This document shows positions 21,025-57,961 of a stretch of 64,000 nucleotides of DNA, piece after piece. How positions within the stretch are numbered: position 1 is the stretch's first letter; the number at the start of each line of letters is the position of its first letter. Source of the stretch: a virus. The notes under the pieces are model-generated. The model was not told where the DNA came from. It saw nothing but the letters and a program-made list of their open reading frames with translations, and ran no database searches. The position numbers and the translations under genes are program-made. The DNA lies in IMG/VR virus record IMGVR_UViG_3300007639_000002, positions 1-64,000 of that record, one strand, 5' to 3'.

Positions 21025-21102
21025 GTGTGAGCACCCGGGAAGGAAAGGGGGACAACCCGGGTGCTCACGGGGCTGCTGGAAAAGAAGGGAAAACCAGCAG
21101 AC
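21025..21102 (-). ncRNA. Candidate two-hairpin sRNA with pyrimidine-rich (anti-SD-like) loops
   Basis: Own TATACT -10 at 21108-21113; perfect 7-bp and 13-bp stems; loops UUUUCCCUUCUUUU and UUGUCCCCCUUUCCUU. Confidence 0.55.
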
Positions 21103-21114
21103 GACTAAGTATAT

Positions 21115-21333
21115 CTAGTGGATGTCTCGCTGTGCAAGTTCATCCCAAACTGAATTAAGAACAGTCAGCGCTTCTGACACTTCTTCTTTAGGACCATCTT
21201 TAAACCGCCACTTATCAAATGACGCTGCAAAGTTCATGATGGTGGAATCCATCCAAGGGGTAAGCGCTGACGTTTCCATTTTTGCAATACGGTTATCCGC
21301 TTTTGCTTTTAACTCTTTGTTAAAAAACCTCAT
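21115..21333 (-). CDS. Hypothetical protein
   Basis: 72-aa ORF coupled by TAATG. Confidence 0.6.
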   Translation of the reverse strand: MRFFNKELKAKADNRIAKMETSALTPWMDSTIMNFAASFDKWRFKDGPKEEVSEALTVLNSVWDELAQRDIH

Positions 21334-21917
21334 TACCAGTTTCCAATTTCACTAGGGGTGTCATCAGTAAACCTACCCTGAATAGCGGCGAGTACGCCAG
21401 TCTCATCAGTCAACTGTTGCCTCTTACAAAAGCCAATTTGAAGGGTGTATTTGAAAGCCCGCACTTGGATACCTTTACCGTGCCTCCAAGGTGGGTTTAT
21501 TTCTTTCATAAACCCTGTAGCAATTAAAGGGGTATTAGCAGGAACGTAGTCTCGTACTATTAAATAAACTCTGCCTACAGCCTGCACGGTGTTTAATGTG
21601 TTTTTAAAAAGAAAATAAGAAAAAAACAAAACAAAATACGTAAAGTACAAACCTTTAAAGCCGTGTACAACGGTCAAGATTAAGGTGGTTAATACAGTTA
21701 AAACAAAACCAACTAAAGGTGTGTACGCTTTACTCAGGGAAAGCGTCTGCTCCACCCAGTTTCGTGTAGTTATACCTATCCAATGACTTATGAACATACG
21801 CTCCCTTTGAATTGCTTCTTGAGAAGTCGTGGTATATAGCGAGTGGGACGTTTTCATATTTGTAGACATCTGGTCCTTTTGGTCTTCCATTTTTTCTAGT
21901 TCCCTCAAATAGTACAT
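21333..21917 (-). CDS. Membrane protein (true start probably near 21730)
   Basis: Two TM segments; listed N-terminus overlaps the KTSC gene. Confidence 0.5.
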   Translation of the reverse strand: MYYLRELEKMEDQKDQMSTNMKTSHSLYTTTSQEAIQRERMFISHWIGITTRNWVEQTLSLSKAYTPLVGFVLTVLTTLILTVVHGFKGLYFTYFVLFFSYFLFKNTLNTVQAVGRVYLIVRDYVPANTPLIATGFMKEINPPWRHGKGIQVRAFKYTLQIGFCKRQQLTDETGVLAAIQGRFTDDTPSEIGNW

Positions 21918-22212
21918 AAACAGTACCCAAGTTATTTGAGGTAGGGATTAAAGTATTAATTCCACCTTTAGGAATAAATTTATGTTTAGTAAGGCGGGTG
22001 CTGAACTGAGGTCCTTTTCCATAGTTCTCAGGTACTTCTACTAAAGAATTTACGTCTTCTGTGTTTGTTTGGTAGAGGTCGGCAATTGTCTTAGTACGGC
22101 TGATAACTTTTTGAGTTACCTCATCCGGAATAGCCCAAGGGAAAGCAGCACCTTCATTGTAGTCTACGTTACCTTTACCCCTGTTGGGACCAAGCCCACC
22201 TTTTCTAGCCAT
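21730..22212 (-). CDS. KTSC-domain protein
   Basis: YKYENVP...Y..F..SNSKGAYV KTSC signature. Confidence 0.7.
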   Translation of the reverse strand: MARKGGLGPNRGKGNVDYNEGAAFPWAIPDEVTQKVISRTKTIADLYQTNTEDVNSLVEVPENYGKGPQFSTRLTKHKFIPKGGINTLIPTSNNLGTVYVLFEGTRKNGRPKGPDVYKYENVPLAIYHDFSRSNSKGAYVHKSLDRYNYTKLGGADAFPE

Positions 22213-22336
22213 TACCTACCTGTTGGGATTGCTGTGAGTTAAGTGCTTTTAAAACTGCCAACTCTACATTGAGTCGTGCAATTTCATTAGTAAGGTGCTG
22301 AATGACCTGTTGTAGGTCTACTTGCTGGTCTTCCAT
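22205..22336 (-). CDS. Small coiled-coil protein (43 aa)
   Basis: Hand-translated MEDQQVDLQQVIQHLTNEIARL..., AAAGGA SD. Confidence 0.5.
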   Translation of the reverse strand: MEDQQVDLQQVIQHLTNEIARLNVELAVLKALNSQQSQQVGNG

Positions 22337-22346
22337 TTGATGTCCT

Positions 22347-24991: not shown

Positions 24992-25790
24992 TTTTTAATT
25001 TACTCCAAAAACTAGACTGTTCTTCCTCTTCAATTCTATCGTCAACAACTTTTACGTATCGCCTGTATGGGGCGGCAGTACCAATCGCAGGGATTGGTTG
25101 CAGCGGAGAATCCCCAAAACCTCTTCCAGATGAGAGTAAGTAATCATCCGTTGTACCCGTCACTATCTTTTCAAAATCTTTATTCCTTTTTATAGGAATA
25201 AGGTGAGCAATTGGCGTGCCGTACTTAATGTTAAAAGAGTTACCAGTAGTAATATTCAACACTACATTCATTGTGTGGTACACATCAGTATGCACAATGC
25301 TTGGGACTATCGTGTAGTTGGGATTTGGGTCAAATAGTGGAGGAAGTATCAAAGTAGACCATCCCGGAGCGGTACGCACCATGAACGGGTTTACTAATTT
25401 TGGGTAACCTGCGTCTTCTATTTCCCGAACGCTGGTCATAGGGCATTTACCAGTGGACTCAAAAGTAAATGGTTCATTTGAAAAGAAATTGCCAAAGGGC
25501 AGGTTTTCCATTTCAACACTCCACTTCAACTCTATATTTGGGTTGGGTGTGAAGTAAGCGTTTGACCAGAAGGGAAGCGTTGCCCCAAGAGACAAGTAGT
25601 CTAATGTCCCAGCACATCTGCGAATAGACCCTTGTTGTTTTGATGAGTTTTTAAACCAGTCCGGCAACGTCTTATGGGTATTTATGTAAGGGGATGCCTC
25701 TAGTAAACGCTCATCCCTTGGCATGATGAGTAGTTCACCTTCTTTTGGTTGATAAACATTTTTGTATAATCTGTGTTTTTTCTTAGTCAT
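24972..25790 (-). CDS. Hypothetical protein (possible beta-clip-like fold)
   Basis: PDWFK, RRC and KYGTPIAHLIP motifs. Confidence 0.5.
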   Translation of the reverse strand: MTKKKHRLYKNVYQPKEGELLIMPRDERLLEASPYINTHKTLPDWFKNSSKQQGSIRRCAGTLDYLSLGATLPFWSNAYFTPNPNIELKWSVEMENLPFGNFFSNEPFTFESTGKCPMTSVREIEDAGYPKLVNPFMVRTAPGWSTLILPPLFDPNPNYTIVPSIVHTDVYHTMNVVLNITTGNSFNIKYGTPIAHLIPIKRNKDFEKIVTGTTDDYLLSSGRGFGDSPLQPIPAIGTAAPYRRYVKVVDDRIEEEEQSSFWSKLKNGKRFF

Positions 25791-27270
25791 ACCTAGTTAA
25801 GTTTCTAAGAGATTCCGCATGATCTACCAATTCGTGGTTATTGCGTCCTGAGGATTTATCATACATATCTTTTTTAACAATATTACGAATACCTAGACGA
25901 TCTATTGCTCTAGTTGTAGATTGTATGTTAAGCACATTTTGTCCTTGTGCAACATGTATAAAATGACCAGACGAGAACAACCCGTAAAAACTACCAAAGT
26001 CGTCGTAACGCATAGGTGGTCTTTCAGACCACAAATCAAGCATTTCTTGTAGTGTGTCGTTTATTGGCATTTCCGATACTGCTTGCCAAAATGGTGTGTC
26101 TCGCCTATCACTGATGTAATGAAGACGAATCATTGTCAGCAAGTTATCCATAACACTGGACATCGCTTTGTTGTATTGCTTTTGTGAGTGCTTATAAGTA
26201 GGAGTATAACTTGCTAAATAAGGAATTAAAGCCTTTATTTGTTGGATAGTACTGCCAATGGATGTGGCCTCTAAAGGTTCCACAAATGACGAGGCAAGCC
26301 CCACAGCACAGCAGTTGTTAACCCAAGGTTTCTTTAAGTATCCGGGGTCAAACTTAAAGTGACGGTGTTTATCAAAAGAATAACCTGTTAGGTTAGATAA
26401 CTCTTCTGCTGCCTTATCCTCATCCATAAATTGTGAAGAGAATACATAGCCATTGCCACGTCGTTCCTGTGTAGGAATCTCCCACGCCCAACCTGAAGAC
26501 ATTGCCCGTGCTCTAGTGTATGGGCGTATTTGGTTAGAGGGGTCTGACTCTGTTGGGCCAGCAATAGCCGAGTCACAGAGTAAGTATTTACTAAACGACT
26601 CCCAATCGGTGTTTCCTATATGGGTCATTAGTACTTTGGAAAAACCGCTTGCATCAATCCAGAAGTCGCCAGATAAAGAGCCGTGAGTCTCCAGTACAAC
26701 AGATTCAATGTTTCCGGTCTCAGGGTTCTGCACCACGGACAGAACATCGTCGTCCATTAATTTTATGCCTCTCTCAAAGCATAAAGATTCAAAATAATTA
26801 TTTAATTTAAAAGTATCAAAATGAAATTGATTTGTATTTTCATGCAGGTTTACACGACGAATCTTATTTTCTGTCAAACCAGCAGACGTGGTTTGTATGG
26901 TTAATAGTTTTTCACGTTCTATAAACCCCATATAAGTTGGGTAAAGACCATAAGCAAAAATGGTCTCATCACCAGAAACGCTATGGAAGTAATCAGGGGT
27001 TTGACGTGTCCAATTTTCAAAACGAATCCCGTATTTGTGAGTAGCGTCTGTGCGTACTAATAATTCTTCAGTTGGTATCTCACAAATACGCATGAATTCA
27101 CGCCAGTGCTCAGTAGAGCCTTCGCCCACCCCTATTATCCCTACTTTTTTAGAAGAGACAACAGTAATGGATGAGTTTGAAAAGGCTTTTTGCAGAGATA
27201 ACGCAGAGATTAGACCAGCAGTTCCAGAACCAATTATGACAATATTTAAGTTGCTATTCATCTGTACCAC
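25783..27270 (-). CDS. Flavin-dependent tryptophan halogenase family protein (PrnA-like)
   Basis: GSGTAG, IGVGEGS, K in ATHKYGI, GWAWEIP and FVEPLEATSI motifs. Confidence 0.9.
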   Translation of the reverse strand: MVQMNSNLNIVIIGSGTAGLISALSLQKAFSNSSITVVSSKKVGIIGVGEGSTEHWREFMRICEIPTEELLVRTDATHKYGIRFENWTRQTPDYFHSVSGDETIFAYGLYPTYMGFIEREKLLTIQTTSAGLTENKIRRVNLHENTNQFHFDTFKLNNYFESLCFERGIKLMDDDVLSVVQNPETGNIESVVLETHGSLSGDFWIDASGFSKVLMTHIGNTDWESFSKYLLCDSAIAGPTESDPSNQIRPYTRARAMSSGWAWEIPTQERRGNGYVFSSQFMDEDKAAEELSNLTGYSFDKHRHFKFDPGYLKKPWVNNCCAVGLASSFVEPLEATSIGSTIQQIKALIPYLASYTPTYKHSQKQYNKAMSSVMDNLLTMIRLHYISDRRDTPFWQAVSEMPINDTLQEMLDLWSERPPMRYDDFGSFYGLFSSGHFIHVAQGQNVLNIQSTTRAIDRLGIRNIVKKDMYDKSSGRNNHELVDHAESLRNLTRYD

Positions 27271-46408: not shown

Positions 46409-46576
46409 CTAGAACCTTGTATCTGTCACTGGGCGAACCTGCATATCCCTATGGCTGAGCCAATAGACGTTGCAGGCTTGGCGACTGCCGACCATGACTA
46501 CACACTTACGTGAAGAGTCATAGACTTCATGTGCTTTAGTGCTGGGCTTTACCTTTTTCATTTGCGTTGTTGTCAT
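46409..46576 (-). CDS. Cassette protein (55 aa), leaderless
   Basis: Hand-translated MTTTQMKKVKPS...; repeat TAG stop. Confidence 0.7.
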   Translation of the reverse strand: MTTTQMKKVKPSTKAHEVYDSSRKCVVMVGSRQACNVYWLSHRDMQVRPVTDTRF

Positions 46577-46615
46577 ATCCACACCTTATCAGGTCACCCT
46601 GCTGGGTCACGAATC

Positions 46616-46864
46616 CTACTTCAGCATTGCTTTCAGTTCAGCCTTCACCACACGTGCCGTGTCTCCACGCCATGCAGATGCATTGCTGAGGAAATAGGCG
46701 ACGATATCCCTAGCGGAGTCGTACCCATATGAGCCACTGATAGAGTCCAGCGAACGCATAGCGTCTAGGTACGGCACAGCACCAAAGTATGGCTTTTTCC
46801 AGTCTGCACTAATGTCACGTGCAATGGTTGATATTGGGCGATGTTGTTGTTTTGTTGTTGTCAT
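46616..46864 (-). CDS. Cassette protein, leaderless
   Basis: RPISTIARDI...AVPYLDAM...YFLSNA..WRG; repeat TAG stop. Confidence 0.8.
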   Translation of the reverse strand: MTTTKQQHRPISTIARDISADWKKPYFGAVPYLDAMRSLDSISGSYGYDSARDIVAYFLSNASAWRGDTARVVKAELKAMLK

Positions 46865-46903
46865 GTAATTACCTTATCAGTTAGTCGGGTTAGGTCACGA
46901 ATC

Positions 46904-47113
46904 CTAGATGTTATGTCCATCTAGTTCAGTTATTTTGGCGATTGCCAAAGATAGTACAGGCTTCAGCCCTAAGAGGAACATCCACACGCCGATCATCTCA
47001 GTGCGTAGTTCATCATCCTTTAGGGCATCTTCCACGGCAGTGTTCCATTCACCGAGCCTGCCCAGTACTTCTAATGTTGATGGTAGTGGTTTGGTTGTTG
47101 TTGTCGTTGTCAT
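46904..47113 (-). CDS. Cassette protein (MTTTTTTK), leaderless
   Basis: ATG 47113 fits the +1 spacing; repeat TAG stop. Confidence 0.75.
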   Translation of the reverse strand: MTTTTTTKPLPSTLEVLGRLGEWNTAVEDALKDDELRTEMIGVWMFLLGLKPVLSLAIAKITELDGHNI

Positions 47114-47122
47114 GTTCACACC

Positions 47123-47314
47123 TTACCAGCCTGCTGGCTCTAGTGACGATTCCTGATGCTCTTCTACTAGGTTGTCGTAGCACCATGTGCATACGTCAGT
47201 TCCCCAGTCTTCAGGGTCAAATCCATTATGCCCATCCACGATAGGGATCAGCATAGAAGATGCTCCACACCGTTCGCAGGCTCCGATATAAATGTTGTTG
47301 TTGTTGTCGTTCAT
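47123..47314 (-). CDS. Cassette protein with CxxC...CxxC, leaderless
   Basis: CERC and CTWC; reads through a TAG-to-CAG repeat variant to the TAA of the next -10 box. Confidence 0.7.
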   Translation of the reverse strand: MNDNNNNIYIGACERCGASSMLIPIVDGHNGFDPEDWGTDVCTWCYDNLVEEHQESSLEPAGW

Positions 47315-47353
47315 GTAATCACCTTACCACCTAGGAGCGTTAGGTCACGAATC

Positions 47354-47587
47354 CTAGATACCTTTCATATCGCAGATGTAATTGTGGCGAGCGTCAAAGT
47401 ACCAGTCAGACTCTTGAAAGGCTTGCTCGTCGCTGGGCGTTCCATCCTGTGCATATGCCATGAACTCTGCCCAGTTATCTAGGTAGTCGTCAGAGCCAAT
47501 GTAGGACTCTTCCCATTCTTCTATATCTTCAGGTGTTACGACTAATTTAGCCGATTCCATGTCTTCCACAGATGTGTATGTGAACAC
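47354..47587 (-). CDS. Acidic cassette protein (leadered, GGAGG SD)
   Basis: CA-rich 5' UTR, SD and GTG; repeat TAG stop. Confidence 0.75.
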   Translation of the reverse strand: MFTYTSVEDMESAKLVVTPEDIEEWEESYIGSDDYLDNWAEFMAYAQDGTPSDEQAFQESDWYFDARHNYICDMKGI

Positions 47588-47646
47588 TATGTGCCTCCGT
47601 TGTTGTCGTTGTTGATAGTTCTAACTTAGCACGTCACCCTGCTGGG

Positions 47647-47826
47647 TCACGAATCCTGCCGTGTGTCCATGTTCCACAGAATGCACTTAGCATCTTTTAA
47701 GATGTTGTATAGATTCATCTCTTCCCATGTCATGCCATAGTACCCATCACGCTGGGTCAAATCAGCCATGAACATAGTAAGCGTTTCATACATTTCAGTG
47801 TTGGTTATTTTCTTTGCTGTTTTCAT
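47647..47826 (-). CDS. Cassette protein (59 aa), leaderless
   Basis: Hand-translated MKTAKKITNTEMY...; stops at the in-frame TGA inside the repeat. Confidence 0.7.
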   Translation of the reverse strand: MKTAKKITNTEMYETLTMFMADLTQRDGYYGMTWEEMNLYNILKDAKCILWNMDTRQDS

Positions 47827-47865
47827 ATCTTCACCTTACCATGTAGTCGGGTTGAGTCACGATTC

Positions 47866-47942
47866 CTAGTGGGTATATTTGGTTAGATTAGCCTCAATAT
47901 ACCAGTGAGGTGCTTTCCCCGCTAACCATGCGGGTTTTCGTT
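47866..47942 (-). ncRNA. Candidate double-pseudoknot small RNA cassette
   Basis: Own repeat promoter, no credible ORF; two hairpins whose loops (UGGUUA, GGUAUAU) pair with adjacent 3' tail segments (UAACCA, AUAUACC). Confidence 0.65.
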
Positions 47943-47981
47943 AATCCCAACTTACCATGATGGAGTGTTGGGTTACGATTC

Positions 47982-48050
47982 CTAATAAAGGATGGCATTC
48001 AATGCCTTAGGAGGTGTCATGAATGCCACCCTCTATTAGTTGTCGTCGTT
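47982..48050 (-). ncRNA. Candidate hairpin sRNA displaying anti-Shine-Dalgarno CACCUCCU
   Basis: Own repeat promoter; 20-bp stem with two G-U pairs on - strand; 18-nt loop. Confidence 0.6.
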
Positions 48051-48089
48051 AATCCCAACCTACCACGTGGGTAGGCTGGGTCACGATTC

Positions 48090-48296
48090 CTAGAGGCTGA
48101 TATGCGCTCCTGAGAGCAAGTCTTCAACCTCATTGCGGATGGTGTCGCTGATGCTGTCACTGAAAGATGAGTTATCAGTGAAATCGTATTCATGGAGGAT
48201 GTCGTTAATGCGATCCTCCAAAGCATCTACTACTTGGTTCATTACCTTGTCACTGATTGCATTGACAAGTTGATTAAGCAATTCTTCCATGGTCAT
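48090..48296 (-). CDS. Acidic cassette protein (leadered; also the C-terminal part of a 141-aa fusion)
   Basis: Own promoter at 48354, CA-rich leader, GAAAGG SD; repeat TAG stop. Confidence 0.7.
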   Translation of the reverse strand: MTMEELLNQLVNAISDKVMNQVVDALEDRINDILHEYDFTDNSSFSDSISDTIRNEVEDLLSGAHISL

Positions 48297-48515
48297 GTTG
48301 TTAGTGCCTTTCGTTGTTGTTGATGAGTTCACTTTATCAGGTGGTTGTACTGAGTCACGATTCCTAGACTCCATGGCGATTTGCTCTTCATGATACTCAC
48401 GTAATAACTCTACGGTATAGTTCATGTAGATACCCTTTGCCATGGCATCTTCTACTTCAGTCTTTGCCATTAGTAAATGGAACACTTTAAGTTGTTGTTG
48501 CGTTTCGTTGTTCAT
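48090..48515 (-). CDS. Leaderless cassette protein fused in frame through the 48354 repeat
   Basis: ATG 48515 at +1; repeat read as SRNRDS. Confidence 0.55.
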   Translation of the reverse strand: MNNETQQQLKVFHLLMAKTEVEDAMAKGIYMNYTVELLREYHEEQIAMESRNRDSVQPPDKVNSSTTTKGTNNMTMEELLNQLVNAISDKVMNQVVDALEDRINDILHEYDFTDNSSFSDSISDTIRNEVEDLLSGAHISL

Positions 48516-48554
48516 GTAAGCACCTTATCAGGTGACATTGTTAGGTCACGATTC

Positions 48555-48782
48555 CTAGCGAATCTCTACAACCCTGCCTAAGCAAGTGAGTAAGTTGCCT
48601 ACGCTCGTAGTGGTTTCCCCTGCCGTGGTGGTGATAACTGCATCATCACCCACTACTTCTACAGAGATAACCCTTGTAATGATTGGGCGTGAGACAGGTG
48701 TCCATGATGGAATGACGATAAACTCGCCTTCTATAATTTGGTCAGCCCGTACTGTGAATGCTGGTTGTTGTTTCGTTGTCAT
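48555..48782 (-). CDS. Cassette protein (small beta-rich), leaderless
   Basis: ATG at +1; repeat TAG stop. Confidence 0.75.
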   Translation of the reverse strand: MTTKQQPAFTVRADQIIEGEFIVIPSWTPVSRPIITRVISVEVVGDDAVITTTAGETTTSVGNLLTCLGRVVEIR

Positions 48783-48821
48783 GGTTTCACCTTATCATGT
48801 TGAGTTGGTAGGTCACGAATC

Positions 48822-49133
48822 CTAGTATGACCTGAACACGTAACCATCAAGTTCCCACACGTCACCACCTAGTTCTAGGTCACGTGCGAATGACTCATAG
48901 TCAAAGTATCCAGTTTTGACTGCTTCAGAAAAGATATCGTCTGCCAACTCTTCAGCGTACTCACGTACTGATGTGACTGCTACGTAGGCATCCTCAAATG
49001 CTGATACTTCGCTGTCGTAGTCTTTGGTTATGCCAAGGTTCCAGCAGTAGATGGCAAAGGCTTGCTCGTCTATGTTGTTGTCTTCTGCTACCTGTGCAAT
49101 TTCTGCGTTGCTGTATTTATGTGTTGTTTCCAT
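48822..49133 (-). CDS. ardA: ArdA-like antirestriction (DNA mimic) protein, leaderless
   Basis: Acidic; FEDAY, EYAEEL, YFDYESFARDL and GYVFR match the ArdA C-terminal signature. Confidence 0.78.
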   Translation of the reverse strand: METTHKYSNAEIAQVAEDNNIDEQAFAIYCWNLGITKDYDSEVSAFEDAYVAVTSVREYAEELADDIFSEAVKTGYFDYESFARDLELGGDVWELDGYVFRSY

Positions 49134-49172
49134 ACCTGTACCTTACCCTCTAGTAGTTGTTAGTCACGAATC

Positions 49173-49358
49173 CTAGAACGATGTTCCTACCAGCGCATTA
49201 TCAAATGTGCGATAGATTACAATGCTCCTAGTTTGGTCTATAGATTCCCACATGGATGCCAACCACGTTGGCAGGTGTGCATCATGCAGTGTGCGTATGT
49301 ACGTTTGGGGGTCACCCTCTAGTTGATATTGTACTTCTACTTTTTTCGTTGTTGTCAT
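49173..49358 (-). CDS. Cassette protein, leaderless
   Basis: MTTTKK; repeat TAG stop. Confidence 0.75.
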   Translation of the reverse strand: MTTTKKVEVQYQLEGDPQTYIRTLHDAHLPTWLASMWESIDQTRSIVIYRTFDNALVGTSF

Positions 49359-49397
49359 GGTTTCACCTTAGCATTCTGAGTTAGTGGGTCACGAATC

Positions 49398-49652
49398 CTA
49401 CAACTCAAAAGAATGCAGTATCTTAGACGTTTCGTCTTGTGAATGTTTATTGGATGTCCAAAAGTGAACCTCTGTACGTGTGTAGATACCACCATGGCAC
49501 ACCATGCCTAGGCGATTACGTGCTTCTTTTTCTGCACGTTCTTCATTGTCGTAGTCTGCACCACCTACGTAGTCTTCGTTGTTGTCCCAAAAGTGTACTG
49601 TGTACCCTGAAGCAATATCTTGATTCATGTTGTTGCCTTTCGTTGTTGTCAT
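49398..49652 (-). CDS. Cassette protein (leaderless ATG plus in-frame SD-led ATG at 49628)
   Basis: ATGACAACAACGAAAGGCAACAACATG. Confidence 0.75.
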   Translation of the reverse strand: MTTTKGNNMNQDIASGYTVHFWDNNEDYVGGADYDNEERAEKEARNRLGMVCHGGIYTRTEVHFWTSNKHSQDETSKILHSFEL

Positions 49653-49682
49653 GTAATCAACTTACCACGTGGTGGTGTTAGG

Positions 49683-50048
49683 TCACGAATGCAGTTCCCG
49701 CATTTTGACCAACCCAACCTGATAATTGGCGGTATTGGTCAAGTTAAGCCACCAGCCAGTGACGAATCCATTTTCGTATTCGTCACAGATATGCTCGTTG
49801 TATTCGCCATGCTCGGTGAGAAGATCACCCAGTAGTTCGTTGATGGATTCCCCTGCCCATTCACCTGATAGTGGTGATGGTGGCATGAAATCGTCGGGGA
49901 GATCACACTCGTCATATAGGCGAAGGAACTCTACATATGTTTCCTGCGTAGTGTTACCGTCAAAGATCCATGATGATGCATTCTTGCCAGCAACTAATCC
50001 ACGAATGTATGCATCATATGCATCAGTTGTTTTGGTTGTTGTGTCCAT
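49683..50048 (-). CDS. Acidic cassette protein, leaderless
   Basis: PSPLSGEWAGES; ends at the TGA in the repeat. Confidence 0.75.
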   Translation of the reverse strand: MDTTTKTTDAYDAYIRGLVAGKNASSWIFDGNTTQETYVEFLRLYDECDLPDDFMPPSPLSGEWAGESINELLGDLLTEHGEYNEHICDEYENGFVTGWWLNLTNTANYQVGLVKMRELHS

Positions 50049-50057
50049 GTGAGTACC

Positions 50058-50282
50058 TTACCCTGCCTTGATGTCCAGTGACGAATCCTGCCATACTTCT
50101 TTGTCTTCTTTAAGTTTGTATGCCCATTTGTATGCTGTGTTCATTGCTGTCCACATTTGGCTGTATGGGGAATTGAATGAGTCTTCTTGATGAGCGTGTA
50201 AGTTGTAGCACACTGATTCCAGTGCATCTATCGCATTAAATAGTTCTTCAAGTGTCATGTCTTCGTTGATGTCGTGTTTCAT
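50058..50282 (-). CDS. Cassette protein, leaderless
   Basis: ATG at +1; reads through a CAG repeat variant. Confidence 0.7.
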   Translation of the reverse strand: MKHDINEDMTLEELFNAIDALESVCYNLHAHQEDSFNSPYSQMWTAMNTAYKWAYKLKEDKEVWQDSSLDIKAG

Positions 50283-50321
50283 GTTGTCACCTTATCATTT
50301 TGTTGTTGGTAGTCACGAATC

Positions 50322-50831
50322 CTATCCATACACCACCTCACCAAAGAGAATGAATTGCAGAATGGAGTCTGCTGTGAGAGCGTCGTACCAACCATCAAAG
50401 GCATCATCATCGTTGAAATAGATGGCACGTAAGCATTGCAACGCAGTCTTACCCAGTTGTCCATGGTCAGGTACGTTCTCCTGTGAGAACTCACCTGTGC
50501 CTACCTTGACGATAAAATCTATAACCATTTGCTCGTTGATAGGGTAAGCCTTGCCATAGGTGAACCATTCATCCCAGTCGTTTATTCCTTCTTGAAAACC
50601 ATGTTCTTTGTTGGCATACAGTGGGTGGGTTTTGTCCACCTCTGTTACTTCTTCTTCTACGTAGATGGTTGCGCTACAGTACTGATCAGTGTTACCCAAT
50701 TCGTACTCTCCGTTTGCACTTCCCCATTTGTAGTTCTTGCGAATCGCCCAGTACCCACATCCTAGTTCCAAAGCATCTGTAAGAATTGTGCAGGCTCCGT
50801 ATGTCATTTGTTGTTTATTTGCTGTTGTCAT
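50322..50831 (-). CDS. Acidic cassette protein, leaderless
   Basis: GCGYWA and DALTADSILQFILFGEVVYG motifs; repeat TAG stop. Confidence 0.8.
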   Translation of the reverse strand: MTTANKQQMTYGACTILTDALELGCGYWAIRKNYKWGSANGEYELGNTDQYCSATIYVEEEVTEVDKTHPLYANKEHGFQEGINDWDEWFTYGKAYPINEQMVIDFIVKVGTGEFSQENVPDHGQLGKTALQCLRAIYFNDDDAFDGWYDALTADSILQFILFGEVVYG

Positions 50832-50870
50832 GTCATCAACTTATCAGGTGAGTGTGCTGAGTCACGAATC

Positions 50871-51329
50871 CTACCAACTACTTTGATAGGAGAACTGGTA
50901 CTCTTCGTCAAGAGACAGCGCATTTTTAATGATGGAAATTGAGTACTCTAGGCTCTCAAAGTACCACTCGTCGTACTCAATGTTGCCAAAGAAGAAACCA
51001 CTAGCGGTGGGTAACAGGTCATCGGCAAGGCTATGGTCACCTAGAACCTGTTCGCAGACGTTCATTAACTCCGCAAGTTTCTCACGTGACACGTATGCAT
51101 CTTGGCATTCATCTACGCCATCCTGTACGTTGTCCACGAACCACTGGTGGATGGCGTTGGCTTTACGCCAGTAGCCCACCATGCACCGTACTGTGATAGA
51201 TGGATAGTCAGTGTCTAGTTCAATGTCTAATACTTTCCTGACTGCATGGTACGCTTCATTAACGTCGTCACCGTAGTGTGATGCTGGTGAGAGGTAGCGT
51301 TCTGCTTTGAGGTACTGATCTAATCCCAT
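50871..51329 (-). CDS. Phage protein of MGLDQY...YWRKAN...YQSSW type, leadered
   Basis: Recognisable recurring phage motif set; CA-rich leader with AAAGGA SD. Confidence 0.8.
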   Translation of the reverse strand: MGLDQYLKAERYLSPASHYGDDVNEAYHAVRKVLDIELDTDYPSITVRCMVGYWRKANAIHQWFVDNVQDGVDECQDAYVSREKLAELMNVCEQVLGDHSLADDLLPTASGFFFGNIEYDEWYFESLEYSISIIKNALSLDEEYQFSYQSSW

Positions 51330-51402
51330 GTTGTTATCCTTTTGTTGTTGGTTGTTGTTACTGAAGTTACTTTATCATGTTGTTGTTATGAGTGGCGAAT
51401 CC

Positions 51403-51475
51403 TGTGGAATACACCGATTTCTACGACTAGGGGAAACAACAACGAAACCCTAGGAGCAAACCGATGTACTCCACA
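51403..51475 (-). ncRNA. Candidate hairpin RNA with loop antisense to the cassette (ACA)n starts
   Basis: 18-bp stem with three G-U pairs, inner 6-bp stem, loop UUUCGUUGUUGUUUC. Confidence 0.55.
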
Positions 51476-51479
51476 TGAC

Positions 51480-51674
51480 TCACCACTCATGTTCTTGTAT
51501 AGATAATATCAGCACTAATGCGTTAAACATCAACAATATGCTAAGAAAACCTAAGAGCAAATTACCTGTATTTTCCATACCACCCATGAACCCAATGCTC
51601 AGGATGATAAGAGGCAGAATACAGCGTTTCTTTGTACGTGTCCAGCGATACCAGTTGGTCACCCTGATCCTCAT
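51480..51674 (-). CDS. Two-TM membrane protein
   Basis: Hydrophobic helices; ATGA coupling. Confidence 0.65.
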   Translation of the reverse strand: MRIRVTNWYRWTRTKKRCILPLIILSIGFMGGMENTGNLLLGFLSILLMFNALVLILSIQEHEW

Positions 51675-51919
51675 AACTCTTCCCCGTTTTCGTCAGTGAA
51701 GATCAGGTCAGAGATATCTGTCTGATGACCCCAGCCACATGAAAAATCATCAGTCTTGGCAAGATGTTCAATGTGCTGAACAACATCGTCTAACGTGATG
51801 TCCATGTCTTCATCTATGTCACTATTGAGAGTCCTGATGTCTTTGATTACGTCGTACACGTCATAAGTTATTACTTTTGTAACGTTGATGTACTTGGGTA
51901 GTTCTGTTGTTTCGTTCAT
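51671..51919 (-). CDS. Acidic cassette protein, leaderless
   Basis: ATG 51919 fits the +1 spacing. Confidence 0.75.
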   Translation of the reverse strand: MNETTELPKYINVTKVITYDVYDVIKDIRTLNSDIDEDMDITLDDVVQHIEHLAKTDDFSCGWGHQTDISDLIFTDENGEEL

Positions 51920-51958
51920 ATCCATACCTTATCTTGTTGTTAGTGTTAGTCACGAATC

Positions 51959-52360
51959 CTAGATATTGGCTTCCCAGTCAATATCAGAGTCATAAATGTC
52001 AATGCCAAAACGTGAGTCCCAACGCCATACTTCCTCAAAGGCAACGGTATCTGCACGAACCATTACCCTGCCACGAATGAAACCCTCTTCAGGATTAGTC
52101 TCGTCTGCGTTCCATTGTTTCACGTACTCACCTACACACTCGTACACGTAGCCCTGTAGGGCATCTACGTGCTGTGGGTTATCTAAACACCATGTGTTTT
52201 CTATCACGTCTACGAGCATCCCCATGACCATTAGTTTTGGGTTGCTTTCGCACATATTTATGATGCGATTGAGCATACGCTCTATTTCGCTTGCTGGTAA
52301 TACACCATCCCAGTACGCCATGGTTTCTTGCTCGTAGTACAAGCCTTCACAGCCATCCAT
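51959..52360 (-). CDS. Acidic hypothetical protein
   Basis: TAATG coupling; repeat TAG stop. Confidence 0.7.
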   Translation of the reverse strand: MDGCEGLYYEQETMAYWDGVLPASEIERMLNRIINMCESNPKLMVMGMLVDVIENTWCLDNPQHVDALQGYVYECVGEYVKQWNADETNPEEGFIRGRVMVRADTVAFEEVWRWDSRFGIDIYDSDIDWEANI

Positions 52361-52809
52361 TATGCTTCCAAATCTTCTAGTGGGTACAACACCTTACGTG
52401 CGTACACTTCTTCAATAGCGTCAAGAAGAACCTCATGGTAGTTGCTCCATGCTTTTTCATTGGAAATAGCAAACGCTGAAATAATCTCTAGTGTTTCTTT
52501 ATCAACATCAAAAGCCCATACAACAGAGTCTTTGATATCGGGATCGGGAGTACCCCAATGAACTTCTAATTCTTCACGAATAGAGGCAGGTGAGTAACAA
52601 ACGCTGTTGCTGTAGTTCACGTCACCCCATCCTGTATGGTCACCCATAAACTTCAATGAGATGCCATGCTTACGTGCAATGTTAGATATTTCTTCGTCAG
52701 AAAATGCTTCTAAGGCTGACTCTTCTGATGTAAGGTCATCAGTATCAACGATATAGCAGTTGTCTGCATTAACAATAGTTCCTGATTGTGCGTCAATAAG
52801 TAATTTCAT
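52360..52809 (-). CDS. Acidic cassette protein, leaderless
   Basis: TAAGGT-N6-ATG. Confidence 0.75.
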   Translation of the reverse strand: MKLLIDAQSGTIVNADNCYIVDTDDLTSEESALEAFSDEEISNIARKHGISLKFMGDHTGWGDVNYSNSVCYSPASIREELEVHWGTPDPDIKDSVVWAFDVDKETLEIISAFAISNEKAWSNYHEVLLDAIEEVYARKVLYPLEDLEA

Positions 52810-52825
52810 AGTTGTACCTTAGCCT

Positions 52826-53068
52826 TCAGAGGCTGTTACTCACGAATCCTAGTTTGTCAAGGATAGCGTCACGTACCCATTCAATATCAGGACAAATCTC
52901 ACATACATCGTACTGATTGCATATTTCTGCCCATGCATCTTTGGTAAGTACTTCATAATCATCATCGTCATAAAGGCTTGATGCCCATTCGTATGAGTAG
53001 ATGTCACAACAGATGTCGTCGTCATCTTTTAAGTTTGCGATAATCTCTTTTAAGGTTGATACCTTCAT
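52826..53068 (-). CDS. Acidic hypothetical protein
   Basis: AGAGGA SD; reads through a repeat. Confidence 0.7.
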   Translation of the reverse strand: MKVSTLKEIIANLKDDDDICCDIYSYEWASSLYDDDDYEVLTKDAWAEICNQYDVCEICPDIEWVRDAILDKLGFVSNSL

Positions 53069-53205
53069 GTTGTTTCCTCTATTAGTTTTTCTAGTTTGTT
53101 AATGAGTTCTAGCATTTCATCTGTCAATGGACTGCACCACGTTGTCTTAACGTTACGTAGTTCTGTCAATAGCAGGTGTAAGCCAAAATCTAATTGCTGT
53201 GTCAT
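53065..53205 (-). CDS. Cassette protein (46 aa)
   Basis: Hand-translated MTQQLDFGLHLLLTELRNVK...; short AGAGG leader from promoter 53247. Confidence 0.6.
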   Translation of the reverse strand: MTQQLDFGLHLLLTELRNVKTTWCSPLTDEMLELINKLEKLIEETT

Positions 53206-53483
53206 TGTGTTACCTCTACATTCACTATATTATGAACAGAGCCTGAGTCACGAATCCTAGAGAACGTGCTACCTTTTGTCGGGTCTGTGCGGATGAAATA
53301 GAATGAGTCTGCCCACTGATGGATATCGTCGGCAATGTCTTCATTCATGGCGACTACCTGCCCATGCTCATGGTCAATATAGACTGCCAGTTCACCGTCT
53401 TCTGTTATATACAATCCGATATACCAATCGCCCATCATTATCTGTGCGGAGTTATCGGTTTGCTCAATGTAGTTGTTACTCAT
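53202..53483 (-). CDS. Hypothetical protein
   Basis: ATGA coupling; reads through repeat 53247. Confidence 0.65.
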   Translation of the reverse strand: MSNNYIEQTDNSAQIMMGDWYIGLYITEDGELAVYIDHEHGQVVAMNEDIADDIHQWADSFYFIRTDPTKGSTFSRIRDSGSVHNIVNVEVTQ

Positions 53484-53725
53484 AAACAGAACCCATTACA
53501 ACGTGGGAATCCGCAGGCTGGGCAGTAAGACTCTTCTTCTTCTTCTTCTTCGTCTTTTGTGATGCCAAAGATGGTATAACCAGCCTCAACCAAAAGGTCA
53601 GCAACTAGGTCTAATGACTCACCATCGGTGTACTCGTACTCTAGGTCTTTGGGATTAGAACCTTCAACACGCTTTTCTAAGATGTTGATGATTTCTTGAA
53701 TGAGTTCGTCGTTTGCTGTTGTCAT
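53480..53725 (-). CDS. Acidic cassette protein with C-terminal Cys cluster, leaderless
   Basis: MTTAN; CPACGFPRCNGFC. Confidence 0.75.
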   Translation of the reverse strand: MTTANDELIQEIINILEKRVEGSNPKDLEYEYTDGESLDLVADLLVEAGYTIFGITKDEEEEEEESYCPACGFPRCNGFCL

Positions 53726-53734
53726 ATCATCAAC

Positions 53735-54016
53735 TTACCATACTGGTGGTGCTAGGTCAGGATTCCTGAGAGAAGAGGTATTTGGGATTACGTCACAGTT
53801 CATTAAATAAATGGCGTTGCTGAGTAGTGATGAAAGTTCATCTTCATTGTCAATGTACTCCCCGTCACCAAGATAAGCAACAGACCATTCATGTGTGTCG
53901 TTGTGCTGTACTGTGCCGTCAGAGAAATGCTCTTCCTCAGCGTTAGTATCCCATTCCCACTTGTTGGTGGATGAATCGTATGAGACTATGAAATAGTGTG
54001 TATGGTTTCCGTTCAT
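53735..54016 (-). CDS. Acidic hypothetical protein
   Basis: Start re-assigned to the SD-led ATG 54016. Confidence 0.65.
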   Translation of the reverse strand: MNGNHTHYFIVSYDSSTNKWEWDTNAEEEHFSDGTVQHNDTHEWSVAYLGDGEYIDNEDELSSLLSNAIYLMNCDVIPNTSSLRNPDLAPPVW

Positions 54017-54174
54017 TGTGTTACTTCCTCTATGTCTGTTGTGTTCCATGTTTCTTGCTCGTCTACACACCATGACTCGTTGCTGTCAAAGAGTTGTTTA
54101 GCCTGTTCAATGCTGTCGGCATCTACTTCGTGGCGGTAGTGAGTTACTTTTTCGTATGTGAGTGTGTACTTCAT
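54013..54174 (-). CDS. Small acidic protein (EVDADSIEQA type)
   Basis: Start re-assigned to ATG 54174; similar to neighbour 54171-54365. Confidence 0.6.
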   Translation of the reverse strand: MKYTLTYEKVTHYRHEVDADSIEQAKQLFDSNESWCVDEQETWNTTDIEEVTQ

Positions 54175-54365
54175 GCTGGTTCTTCCTCTTCTACATCTTC
54201 TACATCCCATGGAGTGTTCCACTCACGAAAGCCCCACATATCTTTTGACTCTAAATCGTCATCTGTGAACTTATCGTAAGCCTCTAGCGCACCCTCTTCT
54301 GAGTCTGCTTTAATTTCGTAGCAGTGGCTAATTACTTCATCTACACGTACTAAATAAGTTTTCAT
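54171..54365 (-). CDS. Small acidic protein (EIKADSEEGA type)
   Basis: GAAAGGA SD after CA-rich leader. Confidence 0.7.
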   Translation of the reverse strand: MKTYLVRVDEVISHCYEIKADSEEGALEAYDKFTDDDLESKDMWGFREWNTPWDVEDVEEEEPA

Positions 54366-54425
54366 GTTGTTCCTTTCGTTGTCGTTATTTACAACTTACC
54401 ATTAGAAGTGTGTTGGTCACGAATC

Positions 54426-54845
54426 CTACGTAGCGTCACTCATGACGAATGCCGATACACAAGCCTGCTCGTACTCTTCTGCATTGCGTACCCCATAGAA
54501 GAAATGGTCACCAGCACCTGTAGTAATCTCTGCCCACGTCATCAGTGAGTCTGTTGTGATGTCTCCATTGTCTAGGATCACTGTTCCCCACATAGCGTCG
54601 GCAACAGACATGACGTACTCTTTAATGTTTTCAGCCATATCAAAATGATCTACGTAGTCAATACGCCACCTGCCTTCACAGGGGAACCCACTCTCTAGGT
54701 CTACTGGCTCATTCTCATTGGCAGGTATAAACCCCACAAGTGTAATGTCATCTACATTCTCCACCAGCATTGCTAGGCGGTCATACTTTTGGTTAGAGTC
54801 CGATGGCACTACGCACCTCTTCTTCGCAGGCTTCACGTGCTTCAA
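54426..54845 (-). CDS. Acidic hypothetical protein (start uncertain, possibly 54770)
   Basis: Repeat TAG stop. Confidence 0.6.
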   Translation of the reverse strand: MKHVKPAKKRCVVPSDSNQKYDRLAMLVENVDDITLVGFIPANENEPVDLESGFPCEGRWRIDYVDHFDMAENIKEYVMSVADAMWGTVILDNGDITTDSLMTWAEITTGAGDHFFYGVRNAEEYEQACVSAFVMSDAT

Positions 54846-55392
54846 TGTATGCGTTGTCTACACGCTCCCACATGGTGTCCATGTCAGTATCCTCAAAACT
54901 ACCCTCTACCGTGATGTTCTCTGTGAACGAAGAATGCCATTGACCGTCATGGTATGAACTAGCACCTGCAAAGCCCATGCCCTGCTCGTCATAAGACAAA
55001 ACAAACTTAAAGTTTGGATACAACGTAGAGATATGCTCAAAAGCCTTTTCGGGTGGTGCCCATGCTGAGTTGAAGTAAAACGAACGGTAGCCGATGTCTT
55101 CGCCACCCATCTCAGTATCGTAATCACCCCACTTGGTTCCCCAGTTGTCACAACACCAGTCGTACCAATCCTTGTGACCGTACTTGGCGATGTTCGCCTC
55201 TTGTTGTATGCGATGCTCTTCTGCTTTATCTGCACCCATGAAGCCTGCCACTGTCTCGTATAGTTCTGTAGGGCAAGGGTAAAGAGAACGTATGATCTTT
55301 ATACGCCCGTCTACTGTGATGTCTTCTACAAACTTCTGTAGTGCTAATTCGTTACCCCATACGTAGAGGTTATTACTGCAATCGTTAGGCAT
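54793..55392 (-). CDS. DUF1281/YubB ferredoxin-like domain protein
   Basis: MPNxCxN, WYDWC.DNWGTKW, F.SAWAPP and YDEQGMGFAG motifs. Confidence 0.75.
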   Translation of the reverse strand: MPNDCSNNLYVWGNELALQKFVEDITVDGRIKIIRSLYPCPTELYETVAGFMGADKAEEHRIQQEANIAKYGHKDWYDWCCDNWGTKWGDYDTEMGGEDIGYRSFYFNSAWAPPEKAFEHISTLYPNFKFVLSYDEQGMGFAGASSYHDGQWHSSFTENITVEGSFEDTDMDTMWERVDNAYIEAREACEEEVRSAIGL

Positions 55393-55726
55393 TTACTTTC
55401 CAATCTTCTATGATGCGGTTATTTTTCATGTCTTTTACAAGTAGGCGTACCCACTCAGACGTATTTGCAAATCCAACTTCTTCGCCGTCGTCGTACTCAA
55501 CTGGGTACACGGTGACCATGATGTTTTCATCACCGAACTCATCGTTATAGTCCCATGCAAAAGTGTTGAAATCAAAAGCCAAATCCCCGATGATGATAGA
55601 TTCCCATGCATCTTCGTCGCCAGTGAACTTACGGCGAGAACGGTGATTCTTCTTAAGTATCTTGTAAGCGTGTTTCATTAACGCTTTTTTATTTTGTTTA
55701 ATGTCTTGAAGAGTTGATGTTTTCAT
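55385..55726 (-). CDS. Cassette protein, leaderless
   Basis: ATG at +1 of repeat 55756. Confidence 0.75.
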   Translation of the reverse strand: MKTSTLQDIKQNKKALMKHAYKILKKNHRSRRKFTGDEDAWESIIIGDLAFDFNTFAWDYNDEFGDENIMVTVYPVEYDDGEEVGFANTSEWVRLLVKDMKNNRIIEDWKVNA

Positions 55727-55765
55727 ATATGCACCTTATCATTGAGAGTGGTTGAGTCACGAATC

Positions 55766-55972
55766 CTATTGCTGTTCAATAAGAAAAGATGGGCGTTCAA
55801 TAGTTGAGTGAGTACCCTCTACGACTGTGATGCCGTAGTGAACTTCACCCCAACCTAAAATGTCTGTAGGGTCATTGCCTAACAATGCTTCGTACACAAG
55901 GTCTTGTGCCTGCATTTCGTTCTTGGCTTTGACAAAGTATGTTCCTGTTGCTGTTACTGTGTAGTAGTTCAT
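55766..55972 (-). CDS. Cassette protein, leaderless
   Basis: ATG at +1 of repeat 56002; repeat TAG stop. Confidence 0.75.
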   Translation of the reverse strand: MNYYTVTATGTYFVKAKNEMQAQDLVYEALLGNDPTDILGWGEVHYGITVVEGTHSTIERPSFLIEQQ

Positions 55973-56000
55973 ACCGCCACTTTAACTCACGTGATGGCTG

Positions 56001-56026
56001 AGTCACGAATCCTAGGAATCGTGACT
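56001..56026. promoter_or_regulatory. Back-to-back pair of repeat promoters sharing a central CTAG (divergence point)
   Basis: AGTCACGAATC-CTAG-GAATCGTGACT. Confidence 0.85.
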
Positions 56027-56071
56027 GAAGCAGGTAGAGTGCTAAGTTGTGTTTATGGAAAGGGACAACAC

Positions 56072-57961
56072 ATGAATGGTCTTACACCACGACAACAACG
56101 TGAAATACGTGAAGAACTAGACAAACGTCTTACGCCATTAGAAATGGTGAACTGCGTTGATGACTGGATTACGTTGAACGAACTTGACAGGCTTACCTTT
56201 AGGGGAGCCTCTGAGTTACTTGACTATATCGCACGGTTGCCTGTAGAGAGGACTCCTGCGTTAGCGCACGTTCCATCTACCGCCACCAAGATCATCGTCA
56301 ATAGCGCACGAGGGGTTTGTGCGTTATGTGACGAAATGGTAACGGCTGGGCAGGGGCATAAAGCCTTTGTCAATGGGGCATGGAGTGTTTATCATGCCGT
56401 AGACGTTTGCCCTGCCGTTACCGTGACTCCTGTCGTTACATATTCGTCGGGCTTGCGTAAGCAACTTGATGATTTTGTACAAACGTTAGACAAGACAGAG
56501 CCACCGATTCTCCCTGATGAATCATTATTTAATCTTTCTAATGCACACCAATTTGACATAGATTTTGATCTTGAATTACCGCTATTGGGGTACCAAAAGG
56601 CGGCGATTGAATATGCACGTCGTACTCACCGTACCCTTGTATGTCAAGACATGGGGTTGGGTAAAACGCCTATCGGCATTGCCCTGACTCATATTGCTCT
56701 TAATGAGGGTCACAAGGTGTTAGTGGTTGTACCGCCAAACCTTGTCTACCAATGGACATCGGAGTTCAAGAAGTTTGCTCCATGGATTAAGGTGGGCAGT
56801 GTACGTGGGCGTAAGGTCGGCAAGTTGCCCAAGACGGATGTACTCATTATCGGGGACTCCATCGTTGAGGCATGGCAGAATGTCCTTGCGGAAAAGTACA
56901 CCAGCATCATTGTTGATGAGGCACACCGCTTTAAGACTGAATCCAGCGGGCGTTCTAAGGCTCTGACTCGTATTGCATCGTTTGTTCCCAAGGATGGATA
57001 CTGCGTTCTGCTATCGGGAACCATCATTCCTAACCGCCCATCGGAGTTCATATCGCCACTGCGTATCATTGGCAGGCTTGAGCCTGTATTCGGTACTAAG
57101 AAGCAGTTTCAGATTAGGTACTGCGATTATCAGATGGTCAATGGGTTTCCTGTGACGGGTGGAGCCAGCAACGTGACAGAGTTAAATACTTTGTTGCGTA
57201 GCACGTGCTACACACGTACCAAGAAAGTAGATGTACTAGATGACCTGCCACCTAAGCGCAGGGCACAACTAGACGTAGAACTAACTGAGACATCCATGCG
57301 TAAGTACCGTAAGGCTGAGGAGGATTTCCTTGCCTTTGTGTACGAGAACTATGGGAACGATGCTTTTCTCGCTGCATCCAAAGCACCTGTGATTACACAG
57401 ATAAATAAACTCAGGCAACTACTGGGTGAGGCAAAGATAGATTCTGCAAAGGAGCACATACAGTCCTTACTGGACTCAGGTGAGCAGGTCATTGCCTTTG
57501 CGTACCACACCAATGTCCTGAAGACTCTCAAAGAGCATTTTGAGGATCAGGGCGTAGTGATGGTTGCCGGTGGTATGACCGCTGAGGCTAAAGACAAGGC
57601 TGTGCAGAAGTTCACTAGCGGTGAGGCACGACTGTTCTTAGGTCAGTACGAAGCAGCCTCAGTAGGTCTTAACCTACAGGTCGCCAGTCACGTGGTCATG
57701 GTTGAGATGCCATGGTCACCTGCTACTGGTTCACAGGCAGAAGACAGGGCATGGCGTTACGGCAACAAGAATGCTGTAGTGGCATGGTGGCTCACTGCCA
57801 TTGACCCCAATGCCCCCACCATTGACTCACGTATGTGGAGTCTCCTGAACGCAAAGGCAGAGACCATCTCAGCCTGTTTAGACGGGTGGGGAGAAGACAT
57901 GAAGGCTGAAGCAGGTAGCATTACCGCCCTGCTACTTCAAGACATGATGAGTGCTTCGTAG
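56072..57961 (+). CDS. SNF2-family (HARP/SMARCAL1-like) helicase
   Basis: YQ, DMGLGKT, DEAH, SGT, GLNL and QAEDRAWRYG motifs; start re-assigned to SD-led ATG 56072; stop is the repeat TAG. Confidence 0.9.
   Translation: MNGLTPRQQREIREELDKRLTPLEMVNCVDDWITLNELDRLTFRGASELLDYIARLPVERTPALAHVPSTATKIIVNSARGVCALCDEMVTAGQGHKAFVNGAWSVYHAVDVCPAVTVTPVVTYSSGLRKQLDDFVQTLDKTEPPILPDESLFNLSNAHQFDIDFDLELPLLGYQKAAIEYARRTHRTLVCQDMGLGKTPIGIALTHIALNEGHKVLVVVPPNLVYQWTSEFKKFAPWIKVGSVRGRKVGKLPKTDVLIIGDSIVEAWQNVLAEKYTSIIVDEAHRFKTESSGRSKALTRIASFVPKDGYCVLLSGTIIPNRPSEFISPLRIIGRLEPVFGTKKQFQIRYCDYQMVNGFPVTGGASNVTELNTLLRSTCYTRTKKVDVLDDLPPKRRAQLDVELTETSMRKYRKAEEDFLAFVYENYGNDAFLAASKAPVITQINKLRQLLGEAKIDSAKEHIQSLLDSGEQVIAFAYHTNVLKTLKEHFEDQGVVMVAGGMTAEAKDKAVQKFTSGEARLFLGQYEAASVGLNLQVASHVVMVEMPWSPATGSQAEDRAWRYGNKNAVVAWWLTAIDPNAPTIDSRMWSLLNAKAETISACLDGWGEDMKAEAGSITALLLQDMMSAS

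Follow-up and report, generated by a model that had tools for sequence, protein, structure and literature searches.

A leaderless early gene array with embedded candidate riboregulator RNAs in a phage of a probable actinobacterial host

A 64,000-nt stretch of viral DNA (bases 1-64000 of the 79-kb IMG/VR virus record IMGVR_UViG_3300007639_000002, ~45% G+C; hereafter the window) was found to combine an early gene cassette in which most genes lack a leader with three strongly folding minus-strand hairpins, at 21.0, 48.0 and 51.4 kb, whose loops are candidates for pairing with translation initiation signals. Taken as a whole, this arrangement is best explained as a leaderless early and middle gene layout with embedded riboregulator RNAs and a terminator, a reading to which we give slightly less than an even chance of being right. 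As judged from their sequences, the RNA elements are genuine and conserved, and they probably act as riboregulators. Pairing of their loops with initiation signals is a reasonable working model with good precedents, and a coordinated host-takeover circuit is speculative. Sequences, folds, promoter geometry and conservation with covariation were observed directly; transcription, pairing, targets and timing are predictions. The host is very probably an actinobacterium, since the window carries two WhiB-family genes above the Pfam cut-off (59143-59361, plus strand; 61625-61819, minus strand) and a large terminase (19438-21000, minus strand) closest to those of Streptomyces phages (e.g., BRock, 47% identity).

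The early region is built around one repeated promoter. The motif AGGAWTCGTRAC occurs 32 times at no more than one mismatch (0.66 expected), and the promoter total, two degenerate copies included, is 33, with 31 copies on the minus strand (45165 to 56013) and two on the plus strand (56014 and 57960). Spacing within the minus-strand array (45154-56013; AGGAWTCGTGAC-N17-TANNNT) is fixed: the AGGAWTCGTGAC box, 17 nt, a TAAGGT, TAGGTT or TAAGTT hexamer, and then 6 nt. At 23 of the 33 copies an ATG lies exactly at the predicted +1 and opens an open reading frame (ORF) of at least 53 codons; the remaining copies comprise seven that are leadered and three without an ORF. In the relative G001 (82% helicase identity) the box differs slightly and is present 35 times, and the leaderless geometry seen at the 23 copies of the window (a TANNNT -10 hexamer ending 6-7 nt before the start codon, with the A of AUG as +1) recurs at 28 of them. 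The initial annotation had described most cassette genes as leaderless, and this is borne out, including in G001, where the layout is kept. An ArdA-like antirestriction gene within the cassette (48822-49133, minus strand) supports naming it early.

The predicted 5' ends of these messages are distinctive in composition. Between +4 and +24 the leaderless ORFs are 85% A+C, compared with 50% further into the ORF, and the ACAACAACGAAA motif of the early 5' ends is also present in the untranslated leaders of the leadered copies, which marks it as an RNA signal and not a peptide signal. CA repeats behind the start codon are, according to a passage of PMC9031893 that cites Martin-Farmer and Janssen 1999, a known enhancer of leaderless translation. 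In the proposed layout, early and middle genes would use host-type promoters placed such that the mRNA starts on its AUG, the first ~20 CA-rich coding bases would act as the enhancer of leaderless translation, and late genes would be Shine-Dalgarno (SD)-led.

Leaderless starts extend beyond the cassette, and the initial picture has to be corrected to this extent. The middle genes (40250-44985, minus strand) carry a second leaderless promoter type, gTAAACT or TATACT followed by N6-7 and ATG, and starts of this class (gTAAACT, TATACT or TAGAAT, N6/7, ATG) were seen at about a dozen middle genes, those at 38050, 34765 and 22904 included. The large terminase gene, at the head of the SD-led late block, looks leaderless as well (TATGCT-N6-GTG). 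Late structural genes (887-19390, minus strand) do have canonical SDs, with AAGGAG, AGGAG, GGAGG and GAGG dominating, as had been described. The related claim, that leadered early genes favor AAAGG, stands for the sites themselves, as (G/C)AAAGG was found at 48296, 51329, 54365, 56072 and 58037, with GGAGG at 47587 and GAGG at ~53205 as exceptions. It falls as a claim for a separate type of signal: AAAGG is the complement of the last bases of the 16S rRNA tail (CCUUU) and the early leaders of G001 read AAAGGAG, so the two SD types are sub-segments of one SD.

All three hairpins reported initially were recovered with their loops, and each folds far better than shuffled sequence (z of -9.45 at 21.0 kb, -8.0 at 51.4 kb and -6.45 at 48.0 kb). 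On the sense strand, no hairpins of the genome are stronger than these three and a 19-bp palindrome at 45655-45710; the genome hairpin scan lists 47982-48039 and 21027-21068, and the interrupted 51.4 kb stem lies outside its loop limit. G-U pairs are present in all three stems and would be A-C mismatches on the opposite strand, which identifies the minus strand as the folded one. The same pairs argue against the elements acting as DNA, for example as a packaging site or as operator palindromes. A position next to the terminase gene would suit such a role and the genome does hold perfect DNA palindromes (45655-45710 and 56002-56025), but stems that change by compensation while loops are conserved are a further point against it, and we find this explanation barely credible. 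The inverted repeat at 45655-45710 is itself of the DNA type, being perfect over 19 bp and free of G-U pairs, and lies near a ParB_N-like gene (44686-44985). Conservation of loops relative to stems in homologues, the check named in the initial annotation, was seen at 21.0 kb and, in one relative only, at 51.4 kb, but not for the anti-AGGAGG hairpin at 48.0 kb.

The 21.0 kb element precedes the terminase gene. A sigma-70-like promoter (TGCACA-N17-TATACT; 21108-21136, minus strand) is found just upstream of two adjacent hairpins of 7 and 13 bp (21027-21100, minus strand; folded region 21025-21113) with pyrimidine loops UUUUCCCUUCUUUU and UUGUCCCCCUUUCCUU. When 80 terminase relatives (79-90% identity) were compared, a two-hairpin element occupied the same place in the window phage and in L034-L038, L040, L076 and L097-L105, and by their stems these fall into about five lineages that have no stem sequence in common. 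Their loops are nevertheless at least 85% pyrimidine (among them UUUCCUCCUUUC, CACCUCCUU, CCCUCCUGU, CCCCACCUCCCC, UUUCUUCCCUCCUGU and UUCCUCCUA), and many, such as UUUCCUCCUUUC and CACCUCCUU, correspond to the end of 16S rRNA, with identity to its 3' tail over nine bases in several. Compensatory changes affect 7 of 11 pairs in hairpin 2, and within 414 kb of terminase loci long-stem hairpins with pyrimidine loops are confined to the pre-terminase site. The loops of the window phage itself (CCCUUC and CCCCCUUUCC) are not anti-GGAGG. We propose that this RNA would be made from its own promoter-like site and end at the terminator-like hairpin 2, and that its loops, which resemble the 16S rRNA 3' tail, would most likely pair with purine-rich ribosome-binding sites in the fashion of the bacterial 6C and cuckoo RNAs compared below. 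Such pairing would damp SD-led translation, with the phage's own leadered messages, those of the host, or both as targets.

Several observations weigh against this proposal. Most of the 80 relatives do not have the element, and in these the terminase gene directly adjoins or overlaps the gene ahead of it. A hairpin scan of two complete ~95 kb relatives, G005 and G008, gave no clear pre-terminase counterpart; these two genomes are also without the repeated promoter array, and their leaderless signal is modest (G005) or absent (G008). Furthermore, it is in coding regions that the CU-rich loops form their best predicted duplexes, and an unbiased target scan had no preference for ribosome-binding sites. 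The latter result favors a purely structural function, in which the hairpins are intrinsic terminators, insulators or 3'-end stabilizers that keep the leaderless promoters free of read-through, and loop composition stems from another constraint, such as RNase E sites or a protein-binding site, or from chance. Mycobacterial RNase E favors cleavage before C. A leaderless terminase gene would need insulation from upstream transcription, and U-rich tracts do follow hairpin 2 in relatives (L034-L040), with a weak tail in the window phage (ACUUACUAUU). Terminator loops normally vary, however, yet here they stay pyrimidine-rich or 16S-tail-like across at least five unrelated stems, and we consider a purely structural function possible but somewhat unlikely.

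A specific partner for loop 2 was also considered. The leader AUGGAAAGGGACAACAC (56055-56074, plus strand), before the ATG at 56072 of a leadered SNF2-type helicase gene, is partly complementary to loop 2 of the 21.0 kb element. The window phage alone has the helicase leader GGAAAGGG, and it alone has the loop CCCUUUCC; this co-occurrence is suggestive but a single case. The leader is absent from the top predicted duplexes and was rejected as a dedicated target, although this single event was kept as a lead.

The second candidate riboregulator (51403-51478, minus strand) is situated in the 3' untranslated region of a 64-aa membrane-protein gene (51480-51674, minus strand), between its stop codon and a degenerate promoter copy. 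An outer stem of 17 bp, including 3 G-U pairs, carries a G/U-rich apex, the loop of which (UUUCGUUGUUGUUUC) forms the complement of the ACAACAACGAAA motif found at early 5' ends. In a ranking of sites antisense to the predicted 5' ends, this loop comes first on the 56-kb sense strand: GUUGUUGU within it matches 16 of 28, a 12-mer matches three, and duplexes of -10 kcal/mol or lower are predicted with 26 of the 28. The multi-target match observed is unusual for a loop of this size (P ~6e-4). Homologues of the 64-aa protein (n = 15; P0001-P0015) mark the hairpin position in relatives, and of these relatives only G001 is in the viral collection. There, a hairpin again comes after the homologous gene (..IQDHEW); its stem is wholly different, and its apex keeps GUUCGUUGCC and CGUUGUUGU and matches G001's own 5' ends (P ~3.5e-4). 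We suggest that the G/U loop most likely pairs with the CA-rich 5' ends of leaderless early mRNAs, much as GcvB pairs with ACA enhancers, and that the outcome would be feedback on, or shut-off of, early translation. This hairpin has no U tract yet its G/U-rich apex is kept in G001, which is a second point against a purely structural function.

Other results at 51.4 kb weaken the antisense proposal. Genome-wide, complementarity of 9-10 nt is not unusual (P 0.2-0.6) and a 12-mer with three targets is marginal (P 0.045). The comparison covers one relative, G001, and no specific co-variation was found between the loop and the 5' ends of the two phages. The idea that each loop tracks the 5' motif of its own phage was rejected, as the loops of the window phage and G001 pair equally well with either set of 5' ends.

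At 48.0 kb the hairpin is probably better understood from its neighborhood. Behind a promoter box with no ORF (48080-48091, minus strand), the TAG of which is the stop codon of the upstream gene, lies a predicted non-coding transcript (47982-48050, minus strand) composed of AACGACGACAA, a 20-bp hairpin with loop UGACACCUCCUAAGGCAU and a CCUUUAUU tail. The hairpin (47984-48050, minus strand; 2 G-U pairs) has the G+C-rich stem and U tract of an intrinsic terminator (tail AUCCUUUAUU); no other strong terminator-like site lies on the cassette's sense strand (44.5-56.5 kb). Next to it, another promoter box (47972-47983, minus strand) is positioned to drive a double-pseudoknot RNA of four helices (47869-47936, minus strand). 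This RNA of ~68 nt, behind its own promoter copy, is the best-conserved element of the set: it occurs in five lineages (further copies at L021:4598-4666, L031:439-507, L022:279-343 and L029:2934-2998), all 23 pairs are kept in the 5 sequences, 7 of them with compensatory changes, and pairing of loop 1 with the tail was checked. It matches no Rfam family and is absent from five long terminase relatives. An origin as a copy of a host RNA was considered and dropped, with one chance partial match in 596 Gb of genomes. In L021 and L031 the pseudoknot RNA is followed at once by a tRNA-like domain (acceptor stem and GGTTCGAnTCC T arm) not called by ARAGORN, the place of which is taken by the next promoter in the window phage and G001.

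The anti-SD character of this hairpin fared less well. The CACCUCCU loop was not seen in four related lineages: L021 and G001/L029 are without the motif, and that of L031 lies half within a stem. In related lineages a hairpin is also present upstream of the pseudoknot RNA, but with no exposed CCUCC. Moreover, a single CACCTCCT was counted on the 56-kb sense strand, where 0.73 would be expected. Because the loop is not conserved and the count is near expectation, we read the hairpin as first of all an intrinsic terminator, which may insulate the promoter of the double-pseudoknot RNA, with an anti-SD loop that may be secondary. A sole strong terminator-like site adjoining that promoter is likewise what a purely structural function of the hairpins would predict. 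The 48.0 kb loop shares ACACCUCCU with hairpin 2 of L038, so that an anti-SD role may yet apply. A 12-codon ORF (MTPPKALNAILY) lies inside the hairpin.

The initial annotation had combined these elements into one circuit, in which an early anti-AGGAGG RNA from 48.0 kb silences SD-led host mRNAs, leaderless phage mRNAs escape, and early phage messages are in turn shut off at a later stage by the RNAs from 51.4 and 21.0 kb. The contrast of leaderless early and middle genes with SD-led late genes, the CACCUCCU hairpin behind an early-type promoter, the recurrence of 16S-tail-like loops in the phage group and a host context that tolerates leaderless translation (PMC9031893) are all consistent with such a circuit. 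However, takeover rests on the 48.0 kb RNA, whose anti-SD loop is not conserved; late genes of the phage itself, with their strong SDs, would be hit too, and the 21 kb loops of the window phage are not anti-GGAGG. The best CU-rich-loop duplexes fall in coding regions and not in ribosome-binding sites, and the 51.4 kb complementarity is only marginally unusual genome-wide. The 51.4 kb hairpin also lies inside the early region, so that it would be made together with its supposed targets. We therefore regard the circuit as improbable. The broader idea of an RNA-only translation-control program, with leaderless CA-enhanced messages, 16S-tail-mimic RNAs that soak up host SDs and a G/U-loop RNA that later silences early messages, such that three riboregulators and no protein achieve takeover and timing, is similarly a long shot. 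To our knowledge, phage control of translation is protein-based, as with T4 RegA/RegB and the T7 kinase, and the few phage small RNAs (sRNAs) studied have single targets.

A different use of 16S-like loops would be as decoys for host factors that recognize the 16S rRNA 3' tail, such as MazF-type abortive-infection toxins cutting at or before the anti-SD. CACCU (48.0 kb in the window phage; hairpin 2 of L034, L035, L038 and L040) or UCCUU is present in several loops, and in mycobacterial 16S rRNA the toxin MazF-mt11 cleaves C^ACCU immediately ahead of the anti-SD (PMC12274833). Yet CACCU is not universal, being absent from the 21 kb loops of the window phage and from the L097 group, a cleavable decoy would be a weak inhibitor of an enzyme that turns over, and no toxin partner is known; we judge a decoy function very unlikely. 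The preferred reading thus remains that of a leaderless layout with riboregulators at 21.0 and 51.4 kb and a terminator at 48.0 kb.

Additional features were noted around the promoter array. The divergent box that drives the helicase gene (56014-56025, plus strand) stands back to back with the box at 56002-56013, and together they make up a perfect palindrome of 24 bp, GTCACGAATCCTAGGATTCGTGAC, where the early units part to the left and to the right; it may be an operator. Relatives keep TAGGATT with a changed -35 part. Leadered cassette copies start AUC where leaderless ones start AUG (47657 and 48365, minus strand, in the window; 286, 1088 and 7080 in G001), which suggests that the leadered genes were derived from leaderless ones via a third-base change. 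Inside a 141-aa ORF (48090-48515, minus strand) lie a promoter copy (48354-48365) and, in frame, an SD-led ATG at 48296, and the cassette at 49693 (49398-49652, minus strand) has a leaderless AUG plus an in-frame GAAAGG-led AUG eight codons on; two protein isoforms are possible. No relative of the 141-aa gene, which lies beside the 48.0 kb RNA, was found. Between the final promoter copy (45165) and the next gene lie ~130 nt of C-rich, non-coding DNA (44986-45125, minus strand) without significant structure (z -1.5).

The window contains no tRNA or tmRNA, no Rfam family was matched across it at gathering score, and no family was matched at E<=10 around 21.0 kb, around 48.0 kb or in three related loci, the sole match of the Rfam searches being a weak tRNA match adjoining the pseudoknot RNA in L031. 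Megablast with the cassette gave no match among cultured phages, and no element comparable to that at 21.0 kb precedes the terminase gene of Streptomyces phage BRock. Tryptophan-halogenase-like (25783-27270), PhyH-type dioxygenase (39082-39867) and methyltransferase (38498-39085) genes, all on the minus strand, are present amid tail-fiber-like collagen-repeat genes.

Comparison with described systems places the elements near several known designs. Among phages, the nearest case in a 2025 review of phage sRNAs (PMC12197685), in which leaderless mRNAs and actinobacteria do not come up, is the c4 antisense RNA of P1/P7; the loops of c4 block translation of a phage mRNA by pairing with its ribosome-binding region. 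Unlike the elements described here, c4 has one dedicated target (ant) in an immunity circuit and is not a generic mimic of an SD or 5' end. The early array resembles the PeSL cassettes of T4-type phages (PMC2839356) in its many small early genes, each with a copy of one strong promoter in a modular array. PeSLs, however, yield leadered mRNAs and have a terminator stem-loop for every promoter, whereas the window phage has one terminator-like hairpin in 11 kb and promoters that abut the start codon.

The pre-terminase element is most readily compared with two bacterial sRNA families. Cuckoo (alpha-r14/CcsR) RNAs of Alphaproteobacteria comprise 2-4 adjacent hairpins, in which the stems vary widely and each loop bears a pyrimidine motif resembling an anti-SD (PMC4615179), and the element shares with them two adjacent hairpins whose stems are unrelated between lineages. 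It differs in that cuckoo loops all carry CCUCCUCCC, in contrast to UUUCCUCCUUUC, CACCUCCUU and CCCUCCUGU in relatives and CCCUUC/CCCCCUUUCC in the window phage, and in being encoded by an actinobacterial phage at the head of a late operon. Actinobacterial 6C pairs its C-rich loops, chaperone-free, with the G-rich ribosome-binding sites of panD and dnaB and represses translation (PMC6486639). The host phylum is common to 6C/B11 (RF01066) and the element, which is phage-borne and has C/U-mixed loops (at least 85% pyrimidine) in place of C-runs; its target scan does not single out ribosome-binding sites, and the RF01066 model gave no match at gathering score, nor at E<=10 on 20950-21200. The 51.4 kb loop, in turn, recalls GcvB, a G/U-rich single-stranded seed of which silences CA/ACA-rich translation enhancers in many mRNAs (PMC3879156), as its G/U-rich loop faces CA-rich ACAACAAC 5' ends. 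GcvB is enterobacterial and Hfq-dependent and targets sites upstream of SDs, whereas the 51.4 kb loop is predicted to target leaderless mRNAs at their first codons; it is unrelated to GcvB in sequence, and there is no Rfam match anywhere in the window.

Overall, the elements appear to be a phage-borne variant of known riboregulator designs that is not described in the 2025 phage-sRNA review. A lytic-type actinophage here joins systematic leaderless expression with conserved hairpins, the loops of which copy the mRNA-docking tail of the ribosome or the sequence complementary to the phage's own 5' enhancer. Should the RNAs work in the predicted way, a phage would have a simple route to favoring one initiation mode over another, and regulators of the 6C/cuckoo and GcvB types would have their first phage counterparts.

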